IMG/VR virus record: IMGVR_UViG_3300020281_001713
Length of the DNA stretch: 64,000 nucleotides
DNA from: a virus
Reading direction: 5' to 3' (one strand)
Both the position numbers and the translations under genes were made by a program. The notes beneath the pieces are model-generated. The model made no database searches and had not been told where the DNA came from. It was given only the letters and a program-made list of their open reading frames with translations. Positions within the stretch are counted from its first letter, which is position 1, and each line of letters starts with the position of its first letter. Shown piece by piece: positions 3,667 through 43,917 of this stretch.

Positions 3667-3915
3667 ATGCGTGTTGAAGACATATTACAGTTAGAAGAAG
3701 ATATCGAAGAGTGGCAGGCTACACGTAGTCTTTGCAAGAGTTCTAAACCAGATCATGCTCTTGGTGCTTCTGCATTGGCAAGTTGTAAGAGTCAAGGGTA
3801 TAGACGCAGAACTGGCAACAAAAGTCATAAAATAGGGCCAAACAAAAGAGTCAAGGTTGGAGGCAAGAAGATCAAGGGAAAAGATTACGGTGGTCCCTTG
3901 CCTGACTATAGTTGA
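3667..3915 (+). CDS. Basic, putative virion-internal protein
   Basis: MRVEDILQLEE N-terminus, K/R-rich C-terminus, late-promoter motif upstream. Confidence 0.55.
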   Translation: MRVEDILQLEEDIEEWQATRSLCKSSKPDHALGASALASCKSQGYRRRTGNKSHKIGPNKRVKVGGKKIKGKDYGGPLPDYS

Positions 3916-6169: not shown

Positions 6170-7360
6170 ATGAATATTAGTATAACAACAAAGCCAACAG
6201 GAAGAAGTCCTGAAAACAAATGGTACTTTGGATCAAGAGCAGAAGCTTTAGATTTATCAAGACCCAAATACAATAGGATAGGAAATGAAGAAGATTTTTG
6301 GGACCTTCATTGGAAAGTATATGAACTAGACTATCCACATGTGCTAGTATTTTATACCTGTGGTATATGTTTTCGTGTACACACCAATGACGATAGGCAT
6401 GCACAGTTTGTAAGAAATATGTTTACTGTTGAAGATGACCCTTGGGCTCATTCATCTGATTGGGAAATTTATCACAATACAGATTATAAAATAGACACAC
6501 CTAAAATTTATATTCACTTAAATGAAAAACGTGCGATAATCGTTGGGACGACATTCTTAGGTGAAATAAAGAAAAGTGTGTTTGGTATCTTAAGTTTCGA
6601 ATTACCAGAACACAAAGTTCTTCCTATGCATTGTAGTGCATTTACATATGAGAATAGTACTAATCTTATGTTTGGTTTGAGTGGCACAGGAAAAACTACA
6701 CTATCTAGCGATCCTGACTACAAACTAATTGGTGATGATGAAATAGCATGGAACTATGAAGGTGTAAACATGATCGAAACAGGCTGTTATGCAAAGAGCG
6801 AAGGCCTATCTCCTGAAACACACCCAACAATATTTGATGCAGTAGAACGTGCGAAATTAAACGATTGTCTAGTTGAAGAAAATCCAGGTGAGGCAAATGC
6901 AAGACTTAGTTATCCTTTAAGCTTCGTTGAAAATTCTTGGGAAATGAAAGATCTTGATCACCCTAATAACATTTTCTTTCTCACAATGGATGCCAAAGGT
7001 GTGTTTCCTCCGATAAGTAAAATTAGTGGAGATACTGTAAGACGGTTTTTCGAAACAGGATATACAAGCCAAATGCCAGGGACTGAAAAAGGTGTAAATG
7101 AAATACGTCCTTTGTTCAGTCCCTGCTATGGTTCACCGTTTATGCCCCGCCATGTTGATGTTTACAGCGATATGTTAATGCATAAAATTGATACGCATAA
7201 GGTTAATGTATATCTTGTTAACACTGGAATGGACAAAAATGGTGTGCGTTATCCTTTGGAGTTCACTAGACAATGCGTCAAAGATGCTATTGTTACTGGT
7301 AGAGAAGATAATAGTGAAGCAGTTCTTTCAACACTGGAGACACTTATAGAAAGGAAATAA
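6170..7360 (+). CDS. pckA: Phosphoenolpyruvate carboxykinase (ATP), short form
   Basis: TGRSP, GEIKKS, LPMHCSA, FGLSGTGKTTLSSDP, LIGDDE, GCYAK, FSPCYGSPFMP, YLVNTG. Confidence 0.9.
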   Translation: MNISITTKPTGRSPENKWYFGSRAEALDLSRPKYNRIGNEEDFWDLHWKVYELDYPHVLVFYTCGICFRVHTNDDRHAQFVRNMFTVEDDPWAHSSDWEIYHNTDYKIDTPKIYIHLNEKRAIIVGTTFLGEIKKSVFGILSFELPEHKVLPMHCSAFTYENSTNLMFGLSGTGKTTLSSDPDYKLIGDDEIAWNYEGVNMIETGCYAKSEGLSPETHPTIFDAVERAKLNDCLVEENPGEANARLSYPLSFVENSWEMKDLDHPNNIFFLTMDAKGVFPPISKISGDTVRRFFETGYTSQMPGTEKGVNEIRPLFSPCYGSPFMPRHVDVYSDMLMHKIDTHKVNVYLVNTGMDKNGVRYPLEFTRQCVKDAIVTGREDNSEAVLSTLETLIERK

Positions 7361-8189: not shown

Positions 8190-8375
8190 CTAGCCTACCC
8201 ATTGAATGCCACGATAAAGTCTTTCAACTTTAGCAGGCTGAGTAGATCTTTCTACTGTTTCGTTAGAGTAACCAATACCACGATAGATCAAAGATTTGAT
8301 CTTAGATGACACATTTTTTGTGTCAGCTTTTGGTGATTTTGATACTTTGAAACCTCTATAGATTAGATCTGTCAT
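8190..8375 (-). CDS. DUF4278-like small protein
   Basis: Three L.YRG repeats (LIYRGF, LIYRGI, LYRGI); AGGAG RBS; downstream of a glutamine riboswitch. Confidence 0.75.
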   Translation of the reverse strand: MTDLIYRGFKVSKSPKADTKNVSSKIKSLIYRGIGYSNETVERSTQPAKVERLYRGIQWVG

Positions 8376-8403
8376 TGCTCATCTCCTATTTTGTCTATAA
8401 AAG

Positions 8404-8462
8404 ATGCGTTCCTTCGACGTAATAGTCTACTTCCGTTCACAATACTGCCGTGAATGAACGAT
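8404..8462 (-). ncRNA. Glutamine riboswitch (glnA-motif type)
   Basis: Minus strand AUCGUUC-A-UUCAC...GUGAA-CGGAAGUA-GAC-UAUUAC-GUC-GAAG-GAACGCAU: P1 CGUUC/GAACG, P2, CGGAAGUA junction, P3, GAAG. Confidence 0.8.
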
Positions 8463-8515: not shown

Positions 8516-8523
8516 TATTTATA
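8516..8523 (-). promoter_or_regulatory. T4-type late promoter for the riboswitch/DUF4278 transcript
   Basis: TATAAATA on the minus strand. Confidence 0.6.
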
Positions 8524-8531
8524 CTCTTAAT

Positions 8532-8631
8532 TGGCTTTGGGGGAAGGATTCGAACCTTCACGGTAAATATATTGCAGTATCTTTACCACACGATAAACAG
8601 TCGTGCGTGTCTACCATTCCACCACCCCAAA
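8532..8631 (-). tRNA. Atypical tRNA, anticodon GTT (Asn), 29-nt variable region
   Basis: TTTGGGG TG GTG-GAATGGTAGA-CAC G CACGA-CTGTTTA-TCGTG [TGGTAAAGATACTGCAATATATTTACCGT] GAAGG-TTCGAAT-CCTTC CCCCAAA G CCA. Confidence 0.9.
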
Positions 8632-8639
8632 CTGGTCAA

Positions 8640-9593
8640 CTAGTTTGCAATTACATGCTTACCGTCTATAACTAAAACTTCCCCTGGATCTTCGTTAGTC
8701 ATCAAAGGACCCTTAATAGATGTGCCTTTTTGAATCATACCCATTGGCACAGGACGCTTGTATTCAGGATTGACTAAAGTATCCAAAGCCGCAATCATAC
8801 GAGTCATACCTATGCCGCCGCCAACTCTTGGGAAGAAGTCAAACTTTAAAAACTCTTCTAGTTCTGCTTCTACTCTTTCTTTACCAAATAACTTATACAA
8901 CAGTTGACTATATTCTCCACCTGTAATAGTATGGAAGGTATCACGCATCATTTCTACATCACATGAACGTTCTGCACTGCCTATTGTTTCCATACCTCCT
9001 AATATTACATCAATCTTCTTACTTGTCTCTGCGTTTTCATGTCTACTCATATTCCAAAACGGACTAGTAAACTCTGGGAAATCTGTAATCATACAGCTTT
9101 TATTTTGCTTATACATTCTTACTTCGTGATCTGCTTCCAATTCATCATAAGATCCTAGTCCAAAATGCCACTGCCATTCAGCATAAGTTTTTTCTGTAGG
9201 TTCATCAAAACCTAAATATTCACATAATTCATATTCCATTGTTTTCAGATCATTAATATCTCCTGGCATTTCAAATTCAAACATTGGAAATATTATATCG
9301 TGTCGACCTGGTATTGCATTTGGTTCTTGTCTGTAAGAAGTGGAGACACAAAAAAACCCCTTACTATCGGGGCTACTTAATAATTCGTGTTCCAGCCACA
9401 TTTGGCCTGTTTGTGGCAAAGGCCAAACTTGGCCTGCGTAATTGTACGTTGCTACATTGAATGGATCTTCGCATGCGGCAAGTATTGATAGTCTGTTTTG
9501 TGTATGGACTTCTTCAAAACCTTTGTCCAAAAAAAATGACCTTAAAAGGCCAACTGTTTTTGTAAACTTCGTAGGGGATATTAGTTGCGTCAT
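8640..9593 (-). CDS. Class IIb (Asn/Asp) aminoacyl-tRNA synthetase catalytic-domain-only protein
   Basis: Motif 1 FFLDKGFEEVHT, LPQTGQMWLE, motif 2 SYRQEP...RH..FPMFEFE, ETIGSAER, motif 3 GGGIGMTRM; no N-terminal OB domain. Confidence 0.85.
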   Translation of the reverse strand: MTQLISPTKFTKTVGLLRSFFLDKGFEEVHTQNRLSILAACEDPFNVATYNYAGQVWPLPQTGQMWLEHELLSSPDSKGFFCVSTSYRQEPNAIPGRHDIIFPMFEFEMPGDINDLKTMEYELCEYLGFDEPTEKTYAEWQWHFGLGSYDELEADHEVRMYKQNKSCMITDFPEFTSPFWNMSRHENAETSKKIDVILGGMETIGSAERSCDVEMMRDTFHTITGGEYSQLLYKLFGKERVEAELEEFLKFDFFPRVGGGIGMTRMIAALDTLVNPEYKRPVPMGMIQKGTSIKGPLMTNEDPGEVLVIDGKHVIAN

Positions 9594-9668
9594 TTCTTTT
9601 TCCTTTTTAGTAAATTCAACCTAAAAAAAATTTGCTCAAAAAAAAATTGAGCTTATTTCTTCATCTGT

Positions 9669-9848
9669 TTATTTATCAAAGCGACCTATTATGCTGTCAT
9701 TAAACTTGACCCACAGATACAAAAATCCTAAAACTAACCATGCCCAATTCAAAAAGTCCCATGGCAAAATCATATGATACCAAAAATCCCAATGAAAAGG
9801 ATGCATTGTGCTATAATCTGTTCCTGTATAATAGTAATGCTTATCCAT
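9669..9848 (-). CDS. Small Trp-rich membrane protein (59 aa, not in ORF track)
   Basis: MDKHYYYTG...WDFLNWAWLVLGFLYLWVKF...; abuts the upstream ORF stop. Confidence 0.5.
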   Translation of the reverse strand: MDKHYYYTGTDYSTMHPFHWDFWYHMILPWDFLNWAWLVLGFLYLWVKFNDSIIGRFDK

Positions 9849-10306: not shown

Positions 10307-11500
10307 ATGATTAACAAGGATCCATTTAATAAAGTCTTACAGGACTTAAAAAAGCAAGGTAGGTACAGAGTGTTTAACGACATAGTTCGTGAACGTGGTG
10401 ACTTTCCTAAATCAATTTGGTACGGCCCGTATGCAATTAAAAATATTGTAAACTGGTGCAGTAATGATTACCTCGGTATGGGTCAAAATAAAGTTGTCAT
10501 CGATGCAATGCATACTGCTCTTGATCAGACAGGAAGTGGATCAGGCGGTACGCGAAACATTGGCGGTACTTCGCACTACCACGTAGCATTAGAGCATGAG
10601 CTTGCGAAATTGCATGGTACTTCAAGTGCTTTATTGTTTACAAGTGCGTATGTCGCTAATGAATGGACACTGGTTGCTCTAAGCAAAATCATTCCCAACA
10701 TTATGTTTTTAAGTGATAACTCGAACCATGCCAGCCTGATAGAAGGTATAAGACATAGTGGTGCTCCTAAGGCAAGGTGGAAGCACAATGACCTGAGCGA
10801 CTTAGAAGAAAAATTGCAAGATTGCGTAGACCAAAATAAGGTACCTTGTATCGTATTTGAATCCGTGTATAGCATGGATGGTGACGTAAGTCCAATTGAA
10901 GGTGTCTGTGAGCTTGCCGAAAGGTATAGGGCCATTACATATCTAGACGAAGTACATGCTGTAGGCTTGTATGGGAAAACTGGTGCCGGTATGCTAGATG
11001 AGATCGGTATGAACGGTGGAGTTGATATAGTCAACGGAACTCTCGGCAAAGCGTTTGGGGTGCAAGGCGGTTACATAGCTGGTGAAGGGATTGTCATAGA
11101 CGCAATCAGATCAGTAGCAAGTGGATTTATTTTCACTACCAGTATGAGTCCTGTGATTTGTGCTGGTGCCTTAGCCGCAATTAAATATTTAAAAGATCAT
11201 AATGAATTAAGAGAGCAACATCAATCTAAAGCAAAAAAATTAAAACAAATGTTAAAAGATGTTGACATAGAAGTTTTATCATGTGCTAGTACTCACATTG
11301 TACCTGTTATGATAAGAGATGCAAAACGTTGCAAAAAATATAGTGACGAGTTGCTACATGAATATGGGATTTATATACAGCCCATTAACTATCCTACTGT
11401 GCCAGAAGGTACAGAAAGATTAAGGATCGCACCAACACCACTACACTCTGACGCTATGATGAGCGACTTAGTAGATGCATTGGTTAAGGTTATAAAATGA
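10307..11500 (+). CDS. hemA: 5-aminolevulinate synthase
   Basis: WCSNDYLGM, GSGGTRNIGG, NHASLIEGI, FESVYSMDG, DEVHAVGLYG, GTLGKAFG, QPINYPTVP.GTERLR. Confidence 0.95.
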   Translation: MINKDPFNKVLQDLKKQGRYRVFNDIVRERGDFPKSIWYGPYAIKNIVNWCSNDYLGMGQNKVVIDAMHTALDQTGSGSGGTRNIGGTSHYHVALEHELAKLHGTSSALLFTSAYVANEWTLVALSKIIPNIMFLSDNSNHASLIEGIRHSGAPKARWKHNDLSDLEEKLQDCVDQNKVPCIVFESVYSMDGDVSPIEGVCELAERYRAITYLDEVHAVGLYGKTGAGMLDEIGMNGGVDIVNGTLGKAFGVQGGYIAGEGIVIDAIRSVASGFIFTTSMSPVICAGALAAIKYLKDHNELREQHQSKAKKLKQMLKDVDIEVLSCASTHIVPVMIRDAKRCKKYSDELLHEYGIYIQPINYPTVPEGTERLRIAPTPLHSDAMMSDLVDALVKVIK

Positions 11501-19497: not shown

Positions 19498-20286
19498 ATG
19501 AAAATAGCAATAGCTGGATATGGTTATGTTGGTAAGGCTGTTGAAGCTTATCTACAACATACTGGTGCTACGACTAAAATAGTTGATCCTGAATACTATA
19601 GAATACTAGGTAAAGATCTTACATGTGGACTTAAGGTATCAGATACAAATGCCGATGGTGTTATCATTTGTGTTAATACTCCGCAGGCAGAAAATGGTGA
19701 GTGTGATATATCAAATGTTATTGATGTTTTAGGTGATACACATGCTGAGAAACCAGTACTAATAAAAAGCACTATTAGCTTAGAAGGTTGGAAACAAATC
19801 AAGGAAATATTTCCAAGCCATACAATATCTTTTTCACCTGAGTTTATAAGAGCAGATACAGCTATAGAAGATATGTTGAATACCAAAACTATATACATTG
19901 GTGGAGGACATTATTACTTTTGGGAAAGGGTATTTCAGCGAACCACTAAATTATCAAAAATTATACATGCTAAGCCAGAAGAACTAATATTAGCTAAATA
20001 TTTTCGTAACAGCTTTCTAGCTACTAAGGTTGCTTTCTTTAATCAAATTTATGATTTATGTGAAGCAACCAACATAGACTTTTCTAAAGTCTCAACACTA
20101 ATAACGGAGGACAGCCGTATAGGACAAAGCCACACTGAAGTAACAACTGAACGGGGCTTTGGAGGCCACTGTTTCCCTAAAGACACCCAAGCAATTATAA
20201 AGACAGCACACAGGGAAGGTGTAGACCTTTCGTTATTACGAGAGGCTATACGTTATAACAATAACATTAGGAAGGGTACCACTTGA
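19498..20286 (+). CDS. ugd: UDP-glucose 6-dehydrogenase-like protein
   Basis: GYGYVG, ICVNTP, IKSTI, FSPEF, K...[21 protein letters not shown]. Confidence 0.85.
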
Positions 20287-21221
20287 AAATGAAAATCATA
20301 ACTGGAAATTCAAACCCAGAGTTAGCGGAAAAGATAGCAAAACACTGCTTCGCGACACTGGTTCCTGCCAACGTGAGTGCGTTTGCAGACGGGGAAACAA
20401 GCGTAGAGTTTTTAGAAAATATTAGAGGTGAAGATGTTTTTATTGTAAACTCAACATCAACACCAGTAAACGATAGTTTAATGGAATTACTTATAATGAT
20501 TGATTCTGCTAGACGTAGTTCAGCAAAAAGGATTACCGCAGTTATTCCTTACTTCGGTTATGCTAGACAAGATAGAAAAAGTGCAAGTCGTACACCTATC
20601 ACTGCTAAACTAGTAGCAAACTTGCTTACCACAGCAGGAGCAGATAGAATACTTACTATGGACTTACATGCTGGTCAAATTCAAGGTTTCTTTGATATAC
20701 CTGTGGACGATTTAACCAGCAGGAAAGTTTTTGCAGAAGACATACAGGCTAGGGTGAATGTTGACGAAGGCACAGTATTTGTATCTCCAGATGCAGGCGG
20801 TGCCGTTCGTGCTAGAAAGTTTGCTGACATGTTTCATGCAGACATTGCTATCGTTGACAAACGTAGGCCGGAGGCTGGTGTTGCAGAAGTAATGGCTCTT
20901 ATCGGAGATGTCAAAGACAAACATGCAATCTTAGTAGATGATATTGTAGACAGTGGCGGAACATTATGTAATGCCGCAAAAGCAATAATGGATGCTGGAG
21001 CATTAAGTGTAAGGGCATATATTACTCACGGAGTGCTTAGTGGAGAAGCTACTAAGAAGATTGAAAAGAGTGTGCTAGAAGAATGTGTAGTTACAGACAG
21101 TATCAACACTAGAGATATTAGTAAAATGAAACGTGTCAGAGAAGTAACAACAGGTTCTTTATTTGGTGAAGCTATTCGTAGGGTAACAAATGAAGAAAGC
21201 GTAAGTTCTTTGTTTATCTAA
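20283..21221 (+). CDS. prs: Ribose-phosphate pyrophosphokinase
   Basis: [40 protein letters not shown]. Confidence 0.97.
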
Positions 21222-43387: not shown

Positions 43388-43572
43388 CGACCACACAAGG
43401 AGAACGACTTCTCGATATACGTAAAGAGAATAGTTATAAACTGTGTATTGATCGCAATGACTTGGATCATAGAGAATGAACCAGAACTTTGTCGATTCAA
43501 AAAAAAGGGCGAACAATCCTCAGTGGTTGAAATCGAAGTTGACATCTAATAAAATCTATGTTATAAATAAAC

Positions 43573-43839
43573 TGCAACGTTGAAGCAAGCTCAACGACAT
43601 ACTGGACCCGGGGGCGGTACCCGGCGACTCCACCATAAACACATTTTACCGCAAGTGTGCTTATGATGGGGTCGAAATAGGATCGACAGGTGTTTAATAG
43701 GTAAGTGGAGTTGTCCGGATGTAAGCTCGGTTAACGCGAACAAAAACTATAATTGCAAATGACAATTATGCGCCAGAAATGGCAATGGCGGCCTAAATAG
43801 GCTTTCCGGGGTGGGTACTACCTGGCAACAGAAGTGCCA
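43573..43839 (+). ncRNA. ssrA: Permuted (two-piece) tmRNA, alphaproteobacterial type
   Basis: Acceptor piece ...CCGGG-GGCGGTA-CCCGG-CGACTCCACCA (ends 43635), spacer, coding piece GGGGTCGAAATAGGATCGAC from 43668; G3-U70; tag ANDNYAPEMAMAA* at 43755-43796. Confidence 0.93.
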
Positions 43840-43917
43840 ACTATTTACAAAAAGACATATTTTTTGATAAGTAAAAGTGCAAGAAATATTTGCAATCCAA
43901 AAAACGAAAGGAATACA

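Follow-up and report, generated by a model that had tools for sequence, protein, structure and literature searches.

Two genes lie back to back on the minus strand of the DNA window examined here, a stretch of 64,000 nt of viral origin (IMG/VR record IMGVR_UViG_3300020281_001713). The first of these (8640..9593) encodes a 317-residue enzyme, here called X, which resembles the catalytic core of asparaginyl-tRNA synthetase (AsnRS) and consists of a core (residues 1-272) and a tail (273-317). The second (8532..8631) encodes a 100-nt tRNA with the anticodon GUU, the base pair U1-A72, G73, an encoded CCA end, U37, and a 29-nt variable hairpin. The spacer between the stop codon of X (TAG, 8642-8640) and position 1 of the tRNA (at 8631) measures 8 nt (8632..8639, also on the minus strand), in agreement with a preliminary description of this DNA. 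A terminator scan found no site within the spacer, which suggests that X and the tRNA are co-transcribed and that the tRNA is released by processing. The same description proposed that the two form an orthogonal synthetase/tRNA pair, in which the enzyme recognizes the enlarged variable arm and the acceptor stem instead of the anticodon. Here, we weigh this proposal against what the relatives of both genes, in phages and in bacteria, suggest about the role of the cassette.

Except for positions 1-1487, the window maps to contig C57 (335,231 bp, 35.8% GC). AsnRS, AspRS, and LysRS are all encoded by the 2.36-Mb metagenome-assembled genome (MAG) in which this contig was binned; the contig is probably a (jumbo-)phage contig binned with a bacterium.

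Enzyme X, an AsnRS-like catalytic core

The class II core shared by the D, K, and N synthetases (PF00152) covers residues 12-270 of X (E = 2.5e-16), which bears out the earlier description of the open reading frame (ORF) as a class IIb core of 317 amino acids. When X is aligned with the three synthetases AsnRS, AspRS, and LysRS encoded in the same assembly, its first residues correspond to the motif 1 helix; the oligonucleotide-binding (OB) domain and the hinge are absent, X lacks about 110 residues found at the N-terminus of AsnRS, and the ORF is not extendable upstream. The reported start at motif 1, without an OB-fold anticodon-binding domain, is thus confirmed. X retains the motif 2 arginine (R88), E90, the adenine-stacking phenylalanine (F102), the pocket arginine (R209), and the motif 3 arginine (R265), together with the acidic residues for Mg and ATP, and the family consensus agrees with the conservation of the catalytic residues. 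All three motifs had been called intact; this holds for the arginines of motifs 2 and 3, but the proline of motif 1 is replaced by glutamine throughout the X family.

The same alignment upholds the proposed AsnRS-like pocket. X has the signature Q-T-G-Q-M-W-L-E, without the lysine of AspRS, and F-E-F-E, in which a glutamate replaces the aspartate of AspRS; from published structures, we take these positions to be the determinants of AsnRS/AspRS specificity. Judged by its residues, X is an intact class IIb core that should be able to form an adenylate, with an Asn-type pocket. Its motif 2 loop is rigid and proline-rich (P-N-P-I-P-G) and its core is acidic (isoelectric point, pI, 4.7). In AspRS and AsnRS, a polar motif 2 loop reads the acceptor end of the tRNA. 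In the AlphaFold model of X, the mean pLDDT is 90 for residues 1-272 and below 50 for residues 277-307, which are disordered. The short C-terminal extension noted earlier does exist (about residues 273-317), though it is modeled with low confidence and is present only among very close relatives. This lack of conservation implies that the X family has no added domain for reading the arm of the tRNA, and the tail was rejected as an arm reader because of its low model confidence and its absence from most of the family.

X scores far under every curated equivalog cut-off: 24 bits for the NCBIfam AsnRS model NF003037 (cut-off 414), 21 for TIGR00457 (343), 31 for the non-discriminating AspRS (353), and 18 for NF005055 (389), the model of the archaeal asparagine synthetase AS-AR. 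Weak NCBIfam matches to asparagine synthetase A were also seen, and the EpmA models TIGR00462 and NF006828 gave no match at E values up to 1. When compared with solved structures, the profile of the X family reached 63 bits with AsnRS, about 50 with AspRS, and 32 with archaeal AS-AR (3P8T). Among structural matches of the model, AsnRS ranked highest (Z 26-27, top 27.2; root-mean-square deviation, rmsd, 2.2-2.4 Å over about 250 residues), followed by archaeal AspRS (Z 26.4), EpmA (Z 23.8), AS-AR (Z 23.4), and LysRS (about Z 23). The AS-AR score refers to 3REX, with an rmsd of 2.7 Å over 240 aligned residues, and 3P8T was likewise matched. A protein atlas returned solely the viral clusters of the X family itself.

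By fold and profile, the closest known domain is the catalytic domain of AsnRS (PDB 8H53, 2XTI, 1X54, and 9SH8), with which X shares motifs 2 and 3 and the pocket elements G-Q-(L/M)-x-x-E and E-x-E, at about 20% identity. Unlike AsnRS, X has no OB domain or hinge, has glutamine for the motif 1 proline and a proline-rich motif 2 loop, and shows a genomic tie to pyrimidine genes; the C-terminal strand after motif 3 is missing from its family. Archaeal AS-AR ("AsnRS2", 3P8T) and bacterial AsnA are, like X, lone class IIb cores of about 290 aa. They perform adenylate chemistry on an Asp/Asn ligand without a tRNA, and are a precedent for a synthetase core turned into a metabolic enzyme. However, AS-AR is a weaker match to X than AsnRS in profile, fold, and equivalog score, and X, in contrast to AS-AR and AsnA as known, has a pyrimidine context and occurs in genomes without an AsnRS to use free asparagine. 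EpmA (GenX, PoxA), HisZ, and GluQRS have also lost the anticodon-binding domain and gained a new target, namely EF-P, the regulation of HisG, and the queuosine of tRNA-Asp, respectively. Unlike X, these paralogs have no dedicated co-transcribed tRNA and are of the Lys, His, and Glu type rather than the Asn type; the EpmA fold score reflects generic class IIb similarity.

The long-arm tRNA(GUU)

The atypical long-arm tRNA of the preliminary description is well founded: it scores 50.2 bits with the Rfam tRNA model RF00005 (gathering threshold 29) and has 104 distinct relatives. It has an acceptor stem of 7 bp, an anticodon loop CUGUUUA with U at position 37, and a D stem of 3 bp, in a D arm that is almost identical to that of bacterial tRNA-Leu. 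ARAGORN called it "Asp (atc)", a call that was rejected because the Rfam alignment and the relatives give GUU in a normal 7-nt loop. The minimum free energy fold of the single sequence was not significant (z = -1.6) and was not a cloverleaf, and it was not used.

The anticodon GUU, U1-A72, and G73 are invariant (104/104 relatives). With a length of 11-38 nt, the variable region forms a hairpin in every relative, with compensatory changes in the stem and a conserved loop. Position 37 is U in 86 relatives, A in 13, and C in 5, that is, U or C in 91/104 (88%); in bacterial tRNA-Asn, A37 is the site of the t6A modification. The tRNA thus carries the bacterial tRNA-Asn marks GUU, G73, and U1-A72, but neither the class I body, with its variable loop of 4-5 nt, nor A37. 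Apart from the anticodon, the 104 sequences contain no invariant nucleotide that would be a candidate target. With the class II tRNAs (Leu, Ser, Tyr, and Sec), tRNA(GUU) shares the 3-bp D stem, the Leu-like D arm, and the variable hairpin; it differs from them in its Asn anticodon, its Asn acceptor marks, an arm of up to 38 nt, and, mostly, U37. No description of a class II tRNA-Asn was found in the literature searched. A precedent for a tRNA reserved for non-ribosomal use is the Staphylococcus tRNA-Gly for cell-wall synthesis.

Outside the window, contig C57 also encodes a tRNA-Ile(UAU) of 94 nt (C57:74794-74887), with a variable hairpin of ~24 nt on an otherwise class I body. This long-arm tRNA recurs in related phages, with no synthetase-like gene beside it.

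Linkage of X and the tRNA in phages

A protein search of a viral contig collection identified at least 522 relatives of X, and 80 of these loci were fetched for a tRNA check. tRNA(GUU) is present in 73 of the 80, mostly 5-15 nt after the stop codon and up to about 170 nt from it; the other seven have no such tRNA within 3 kb. An independent search that did not use the protein, in which the pattern described a GUU tRNA of class II-like shape, also returned 80 loci. In all 74 that could be tested (the remaining six were too short upstream), X lies directly upstream on the same strand, and no tRNA(GUU) without X was seen. The pairing is therefore more than chance, and consistent adjacency of a long-arm GUU tRNA, which had been suggested as a check on the orthogonal pair, is found in phages from both directions. 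Adjacency with a spacing of 5-15 nt is kept over 59-87% protein identity and in different phage families. The cyanophages P-SSM7, P-SSM2, and P-SSM5 have the same arrangement, with X at 65% identity and annotated as "tRNA ligase". In phages, X is often located within or next to an array of tRNA genes; in P-SSM2 and P-SSM5, no other tRNA was found in the 6.8 kb fetched around X. A complete sister phage of 342.6 kb, with terminal repeats, has X at 85% identity and ten tRNAs, none of them Asn.

The tRNA-linked X proteins form one clade (support by the SH-like approximate likelihood ratio test, SH-aLRT, 96) that is nested in the cellular radiation and includes an X-pyrF-phosphoribosyltransferase locus. 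A single nested clade suggests that the tRNA was added once, in phages. To judge from the sequences, the carriers of the welded pair are one marine phage clade, made up of jumbo phages like this one and T4-like cyanophages.

In the P-SSM2 record (AY939844.2), a tRNA-Asn feature is placed at 164094-164179, inside a coding sequence, while ARAGORN places the tRNA right after the "tRNA ligase", at 3813-3900 of the fetched locus; the annotated coordinates seem stale. The enzyme is listed as "tRNA ligase, T4-GC 194" in a table row for P-SSM2 and P-SSM7 (PMC3037559). Literature searches on the X family, on an AsnRS-like pyrimidine enzyme, and on cyanophage AsnRS returned this row alone and nothing on function.

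X in bacteria and its pyrimidine context

The X family contains 683 representatives at 50% clustering. A genome scan built from a 10-sequence alignment, with one genome per species, detected it in 416 bacterial species genomes, at 55-62% identity over residues 1-271. The carriers are mainly Patescibacteria, Rickettsiales, other Alphaproteobacteria, Aureispira/Saprospiraceae, Chitinophagales, and Flavobacteriia. Their proteins are stand-alone cores of roughly 270-300 aa, which RefSeq/PGAP names "amino acid--tRNA ligase-related protein". An adjacent tRNA-Asn was found in only 2 of the 60 bacterial loci scanned, and both of these contigs, which had been binned into MAGs, are placed by the tree within the phage clade or beside it. 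Since X occurs without the special tRNA in bacteria and in the sister phage, it does not appear to need this tRNA. A canonical AsnRS is present in 16 of 50 X-bearing genomes, and X was for this reason rejected, as a general rule, as a stand-in for an AsnRS lost from reduced genomes.

Other features were seen near individual family members. In Patescibacteria, X is often followed within 0.1-2.5 kb by a tRNA-Gln(UUG), commonly together with the DNA polymerase III gamma/tau gene, and a dihydrouridine synthase gene lies upstream of X at one locus (L161). The ENA contig k141_549049 encodes a 312-aa member of the family (35% identity) amid genes of eukaryote- or giant-virus-like character, for a protein kinase, SSNA1, and ClpP.

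X forms a tight cluster with genes for orotidine monophosphate (OMP) decarboxylase, a small phosphoribosyltransferase, a dihydroorotate dehydrogenase (DHODH)-like protein, and phosphoribosyl pyrophosphate (PRPP) synthetase in Midichloriaceae, Rickettsiaceae, and a Rhodospirillaceae MAG. In Aureispira and in a Chitinophagales genome, it lies within 1-4 kb of pyrD and pyrF, and two family representatives are fusions, one of DHODH with X and the other of X with OMP decarboxylase. In three Rickettsiales genomes with the X cluster, neither a transcarbamoylase nor a clear amidohydrolase was found, apart from a single amidohydrolase fragment below threshold (20.7 bits) in one of them. Among the 50 X-bearing genomes, PyrF was found in 33 and PyrD in 29; PyrB was found in 2, type I PyrC in 3, and CarB in 4. 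In 14 control genomes, each pyrimidine enzyme was present in all or nearly all. The pattern of few PyrB and CarB also holds in Bacteroidota of 2.4-6.9 Mb, which indicates that genome reduction is not the explanation there. In the order containing Aureispira (61 genomes sampled), PyrB was present in 0 of 3 genomes with X and in 53 of 58 without it (hypergeometric p = 56/35990 = 0.0016). Five genomes of this order have neither X (at E 1e-30) nor PyrB; an X of greater divergence or a different bypass may be present in them.

The clustering of X with the late enzymes and its complementarity with PyrB and CarB suggest that the first steps of pyrimidine synthesis have undergone non-orthologous replacement. 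A replacement of PyrC alone, by cyclization of carbamoyl-aspartate, was considered unlikely, as PyrB and CarB are absent too.

A pyrD-like gene of the divergent subtype seen in the symbiont operons is also present on the phage contig, along with a small phosphoribosyltransferase-like gene and a PRPP synthetase gene (prs; window positions 20283..21221, plus strand), the last possibly belonging to the X pathway, although this link is weak. The pyrD-like ORF (C57:75315-76046), just after the phage tRNA array, matches PF01180 with 72 bits and is 33-35% identical to the pyrD-like genes of the Rickettsiales X operons. OMP decarboxylase was not found on the contig, and the small phosphoribosyltransferase-like protein had no phage match at all. 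The N-terminal 89 homologous codons of the pyrD-like ORF contain no ATG, GTG, or TTG, and an ORF of 121 aa overlaps it upstream in another frame; this could reflect a frameshift, a misassembly, or the use of an unusual start codon.

Interpretation of the cassette

The reading that we tentatively adopt, at somewhat less than even probability, is that X descends from AsnRS, forms adenylates, and supplies pyrimidine synthesis, with asparagine as its probable substrate, and that in one phage clade it became tied to a tRNA-Asn charged by the host. X would bind ATP and an asparagine-like ligand and form an adenylate. In cells, it would stand in for carbamoyl-phosphate synthase, aspartate transcarbamoylase, and dihydroorotase at the entry to the pathway, making dihydroorotate (or its direct precursor) from asparagine or an aspartate derivative and ATP, in one step and without carbamoyl phosphate. 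Asparagine could supply the C4-N3 amide, and the ring would then be closed by CO2, inserted at the cost of ATP between the alpha-amino group and the amide nitrogen; alternatively, aspartate might be activated at its beta-carboxyl and joined to urea. The logic of such an ATP-driven ureido-ring closure would be akin to that of dethiobiotin synthetase or to AsnA chemistry. Dethiobiotin synthetase (BioD) uses CO2 and ATP to close a ureido ring between two nitrogens, with a P-loop fold and phosphoryl activation. The analogy with X is chemical only, as the fold is unrelated and activation in BioD is phosphoryl, not adenylyl.

In the phages, a marine clade would have acquired X and welded to its 3' end a tRNA-Asn with a Leu-like class II body, which would be transcribed together with X and then cut out. 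The host would charge this tRNA, with GUU and G73 serving AsnRS or a non-discriminating AspRS and U1-A72 serving GatCAB. The link to X may lie in the economy of asparagine, through the delivery of tRNA-made asparagine to X, in hosts that form asparagine on tRNA alone, or the buffering of asparagine decoding against the drain that X would cause. There is weak support for a tRNA that is charged by the host and not by X, and that is tied to X through asparagine supply, because the marks for the host enzymes are kept while the decoding position 37 varies. The Asn identity of the welded tRNA suggests that asparagine is part of the story, as a chance match of the amino acid would be expected roughly once in 10-20 cases.

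Several points speak against this reading. To our knowledge, the proposed dihydroorotate reaction has no direct precedent in the class IIb fold. The case is built on the indirect evidence of gene neighborhood and phyletic complementarity, in genomes that are mostly MAGs. No AsnRS match above the curated cut-off was found in 34 of the 50 X-bearing genomes, and in two complete Patescibacteria genomes X occurs without either PyrD or PyrF, which would make dihydroorotate a dead end there. The pyrD-like gene was not found in P-SSM2, P-SSM7, P-SSM5, LR756501, or LR756508, although P-SSM2 and P-SSM7 have both X and the tRNA. Moreover, an Asn-like enzyme with an Asn tRNA, constant spacing, and a tRNA that never occurs alone would also be expected of a true enzyme-substrate pair.

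Such a private charging pair, in which X would be a minimal AsnRS that reads U1-A72, G73, and perhaps the variable arm to provide host-independent Asn-tRNA, is a serious rival, though judged unlikely. The phage linkage favors it (74/74 and 73/80 loci), as do the isolation of the tRNA next to X in P-SSM2 and P-SSM5, the AsnRS-like pocket with its intact ATP and amino-acid residues, the top fold and profile matches to AsnRS, the conserved loop and covarying stem of the variable arm, and the want of a canonical AsnRS in many X-bearing bacteria. However, X occurs without the tRNA in the complete sister phage and in the 416 species genomes, coexists with a canonical AsnRS in 16 of 50 genomes, and has pyrimidine operons, fusions, and a complementarity with PyrB. 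It also has no conserved extra domain for the arm, its motif 2 loop is proline-rich rather than polar, and its core is acidic; U or C at position 37, as in most variants, is poor for decoding AAY. The second long-arm tRNA, tRNA-Ile(UAU), has no partner enzyme, which makes the variable arm less likely as the handle of X. Of the orthogonal pair put forward in the preliminary description, the phage linkage and the AsnRS-like pocket therefore stand, whereas the bacterial family and the sister phage dispense with such a tRNA; recognition of the arm and acceptor stem instead of the anticodon is countered by the missing arm-reading domain, the pyrimidine operons, and the retained host-enzyme marks.

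A variant that joins both subjects, pyrimidine synthesis dependent on the tRNA, is improbable on present sequence data: the long-arm tRNA would act as a dedicated carrier instead of a decoder, on which a non-discriminating AspRS (reading GUU and G73) and GatCAB (reading U1-A72) of the host build asparagine, and X, requiring just the acceptor end, would convert this with ATP to dihydroorotate. The view that X is a tRNA-independent asparagine synthetase of the AS-AR/AsnA kind, making free asparagine from aspartate, ammonium, and ATP in an "asparagine supply module" where the tRNA-Asn would just add to decoding capacity, is given a distinctly low probability. It accords with the size and architecture of X (Z 23.4 to 3rex/3p8t, 32 bits), with the weak NCBIfam matches, and with a theme that would include both the tRNA-Asn and the glutamine riboswitch nearby, but X is nearer to AsnRS in sequence and fold and falls far short of the AS-AR model cut-off (18 versus 389 bits). 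Free asparagine would, in addition, be unusable for translation in Rickettsiales and Patescibacteria that have X and no AsnRS, and the pyrD/E/F/prs operons, the fusions, and the complementarity with PyrB would be left unexplained.

An equally doubtful reading is that there is no functional link, and that an ordinary phage tRNA-Asn rides on the promoter of X, the Asn theme being a coincidence. X often lies in or beside phage tRNA arrays and long-arm tRNAs are not unique to this pair; with a spacer of 5-15 nt the tRNA likely needs the promoter of X, which would explain why it is never found alone and why X survives its loss. The low chance of an amino-acid match and the adjacency conserved across diverged proteins and different phage families argue to the contrary. 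Still less probable is another action of X on the tRNA, such as the amidation of Asp-tRNA(Asn), the modification of a nucleotide, or the regulation of X by uncharged tRNA in the manner of HisZ or GCN2-type sensing. Truncated paralogs that act on or sense tRNA are established (GluQRS, the HisRS-like domain of GCN2), the small phosphoribosyltransferases beside X recall the short HisG that needs HisZ, and the linkage is tight, with a conserved variable-arm loop. Unlike typical regulatory paralogs, though, X has fully conserved adenylate-forming residues; only the anticodon is invariant as a target, and the cellular members of the family have no special tRNA.

Borders and surroundings of the cassette

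On its 5' side, the cassette is bordered by a terminator-like hairpin of the upstream gene (9634..9652, minus strand), and an A/G-rich ribosome-binding stretch lies between this hairpin and the ATG of X at 9593. On its 3' side, a motif resembling a T4-type late promoter, TATAAATA (8516..8523, minus strand), directly follows the tRNA. This motif had been placed ahead of the enzyme, which is not what the coordinates show: it sits after the tRNA and before the glutamine riboswitch, and starts the next unit, composed of the riboswitch and DUF4278. The riboswitch itself, reported earlier as a neighbor, was confirmed (8403-8462, minus strand, 59 bits). Downstream of it lies the gene for a DUF4278 protein of 61 aa that contains L-x-YRG repeats; riboswitch and gene together occupy 8190-8462 on the minus strand.

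The gene for an ATP-dependent phosphoenolpyruvate carboxykinase (6170-7360, plus strand, 314 bits), an enzyme that could feed oxaloacetate and aspartate, is found 1.2 kb downstream of the cassette. The ORF at 10307-11500 (plus strand), 0.7 kb upstream, presumably encodes an ALA synthase, a label that comes from the preliminary description alone. Further along the window, a permuted two-piece transfer-messenger RNA (tmRNA) of the alphaproteobacterial type (43535-43887, plus strand, 145 bits) points to an alphaproteobacterial host, and tmRNA genes are present at related phage loci too.

Significance for phages and for the X family

The pyrimidine and the charging readings are readily separable by experiment, because P-SSM2, P-SSM7, and their hosts are in culture. 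The family reaches across 416 species genomes (Patescibacteria, Rickettsiales, and free-living Bacteroidota of 2.4-6.9 Mb) and at least 522 viral contigs, as well as isolated cyanophages that have been available since 2005. If X charges the captive class II tRNA-Asn, or draws on it, the two would be a natural minimal enzyme-tRNA pair that works without reading the anticodon, which would be relevant to the evolution of the genetic code and to the engineering of orthogonal translation. If the tRNA served as a carrier, the phage would be able to make pyrimidines without carbamoyl phosphate in hosts whose asparagine is formed only on tRNA. Finally, should a single ATP-dependent step of X yield dihydroorotate or some other precursor of pyrimidines, X would represent an unrecognized bypass of CarAB, PyrB, and PyrC, and the prediction of pyrimidine auxotrophy from genomes would change.

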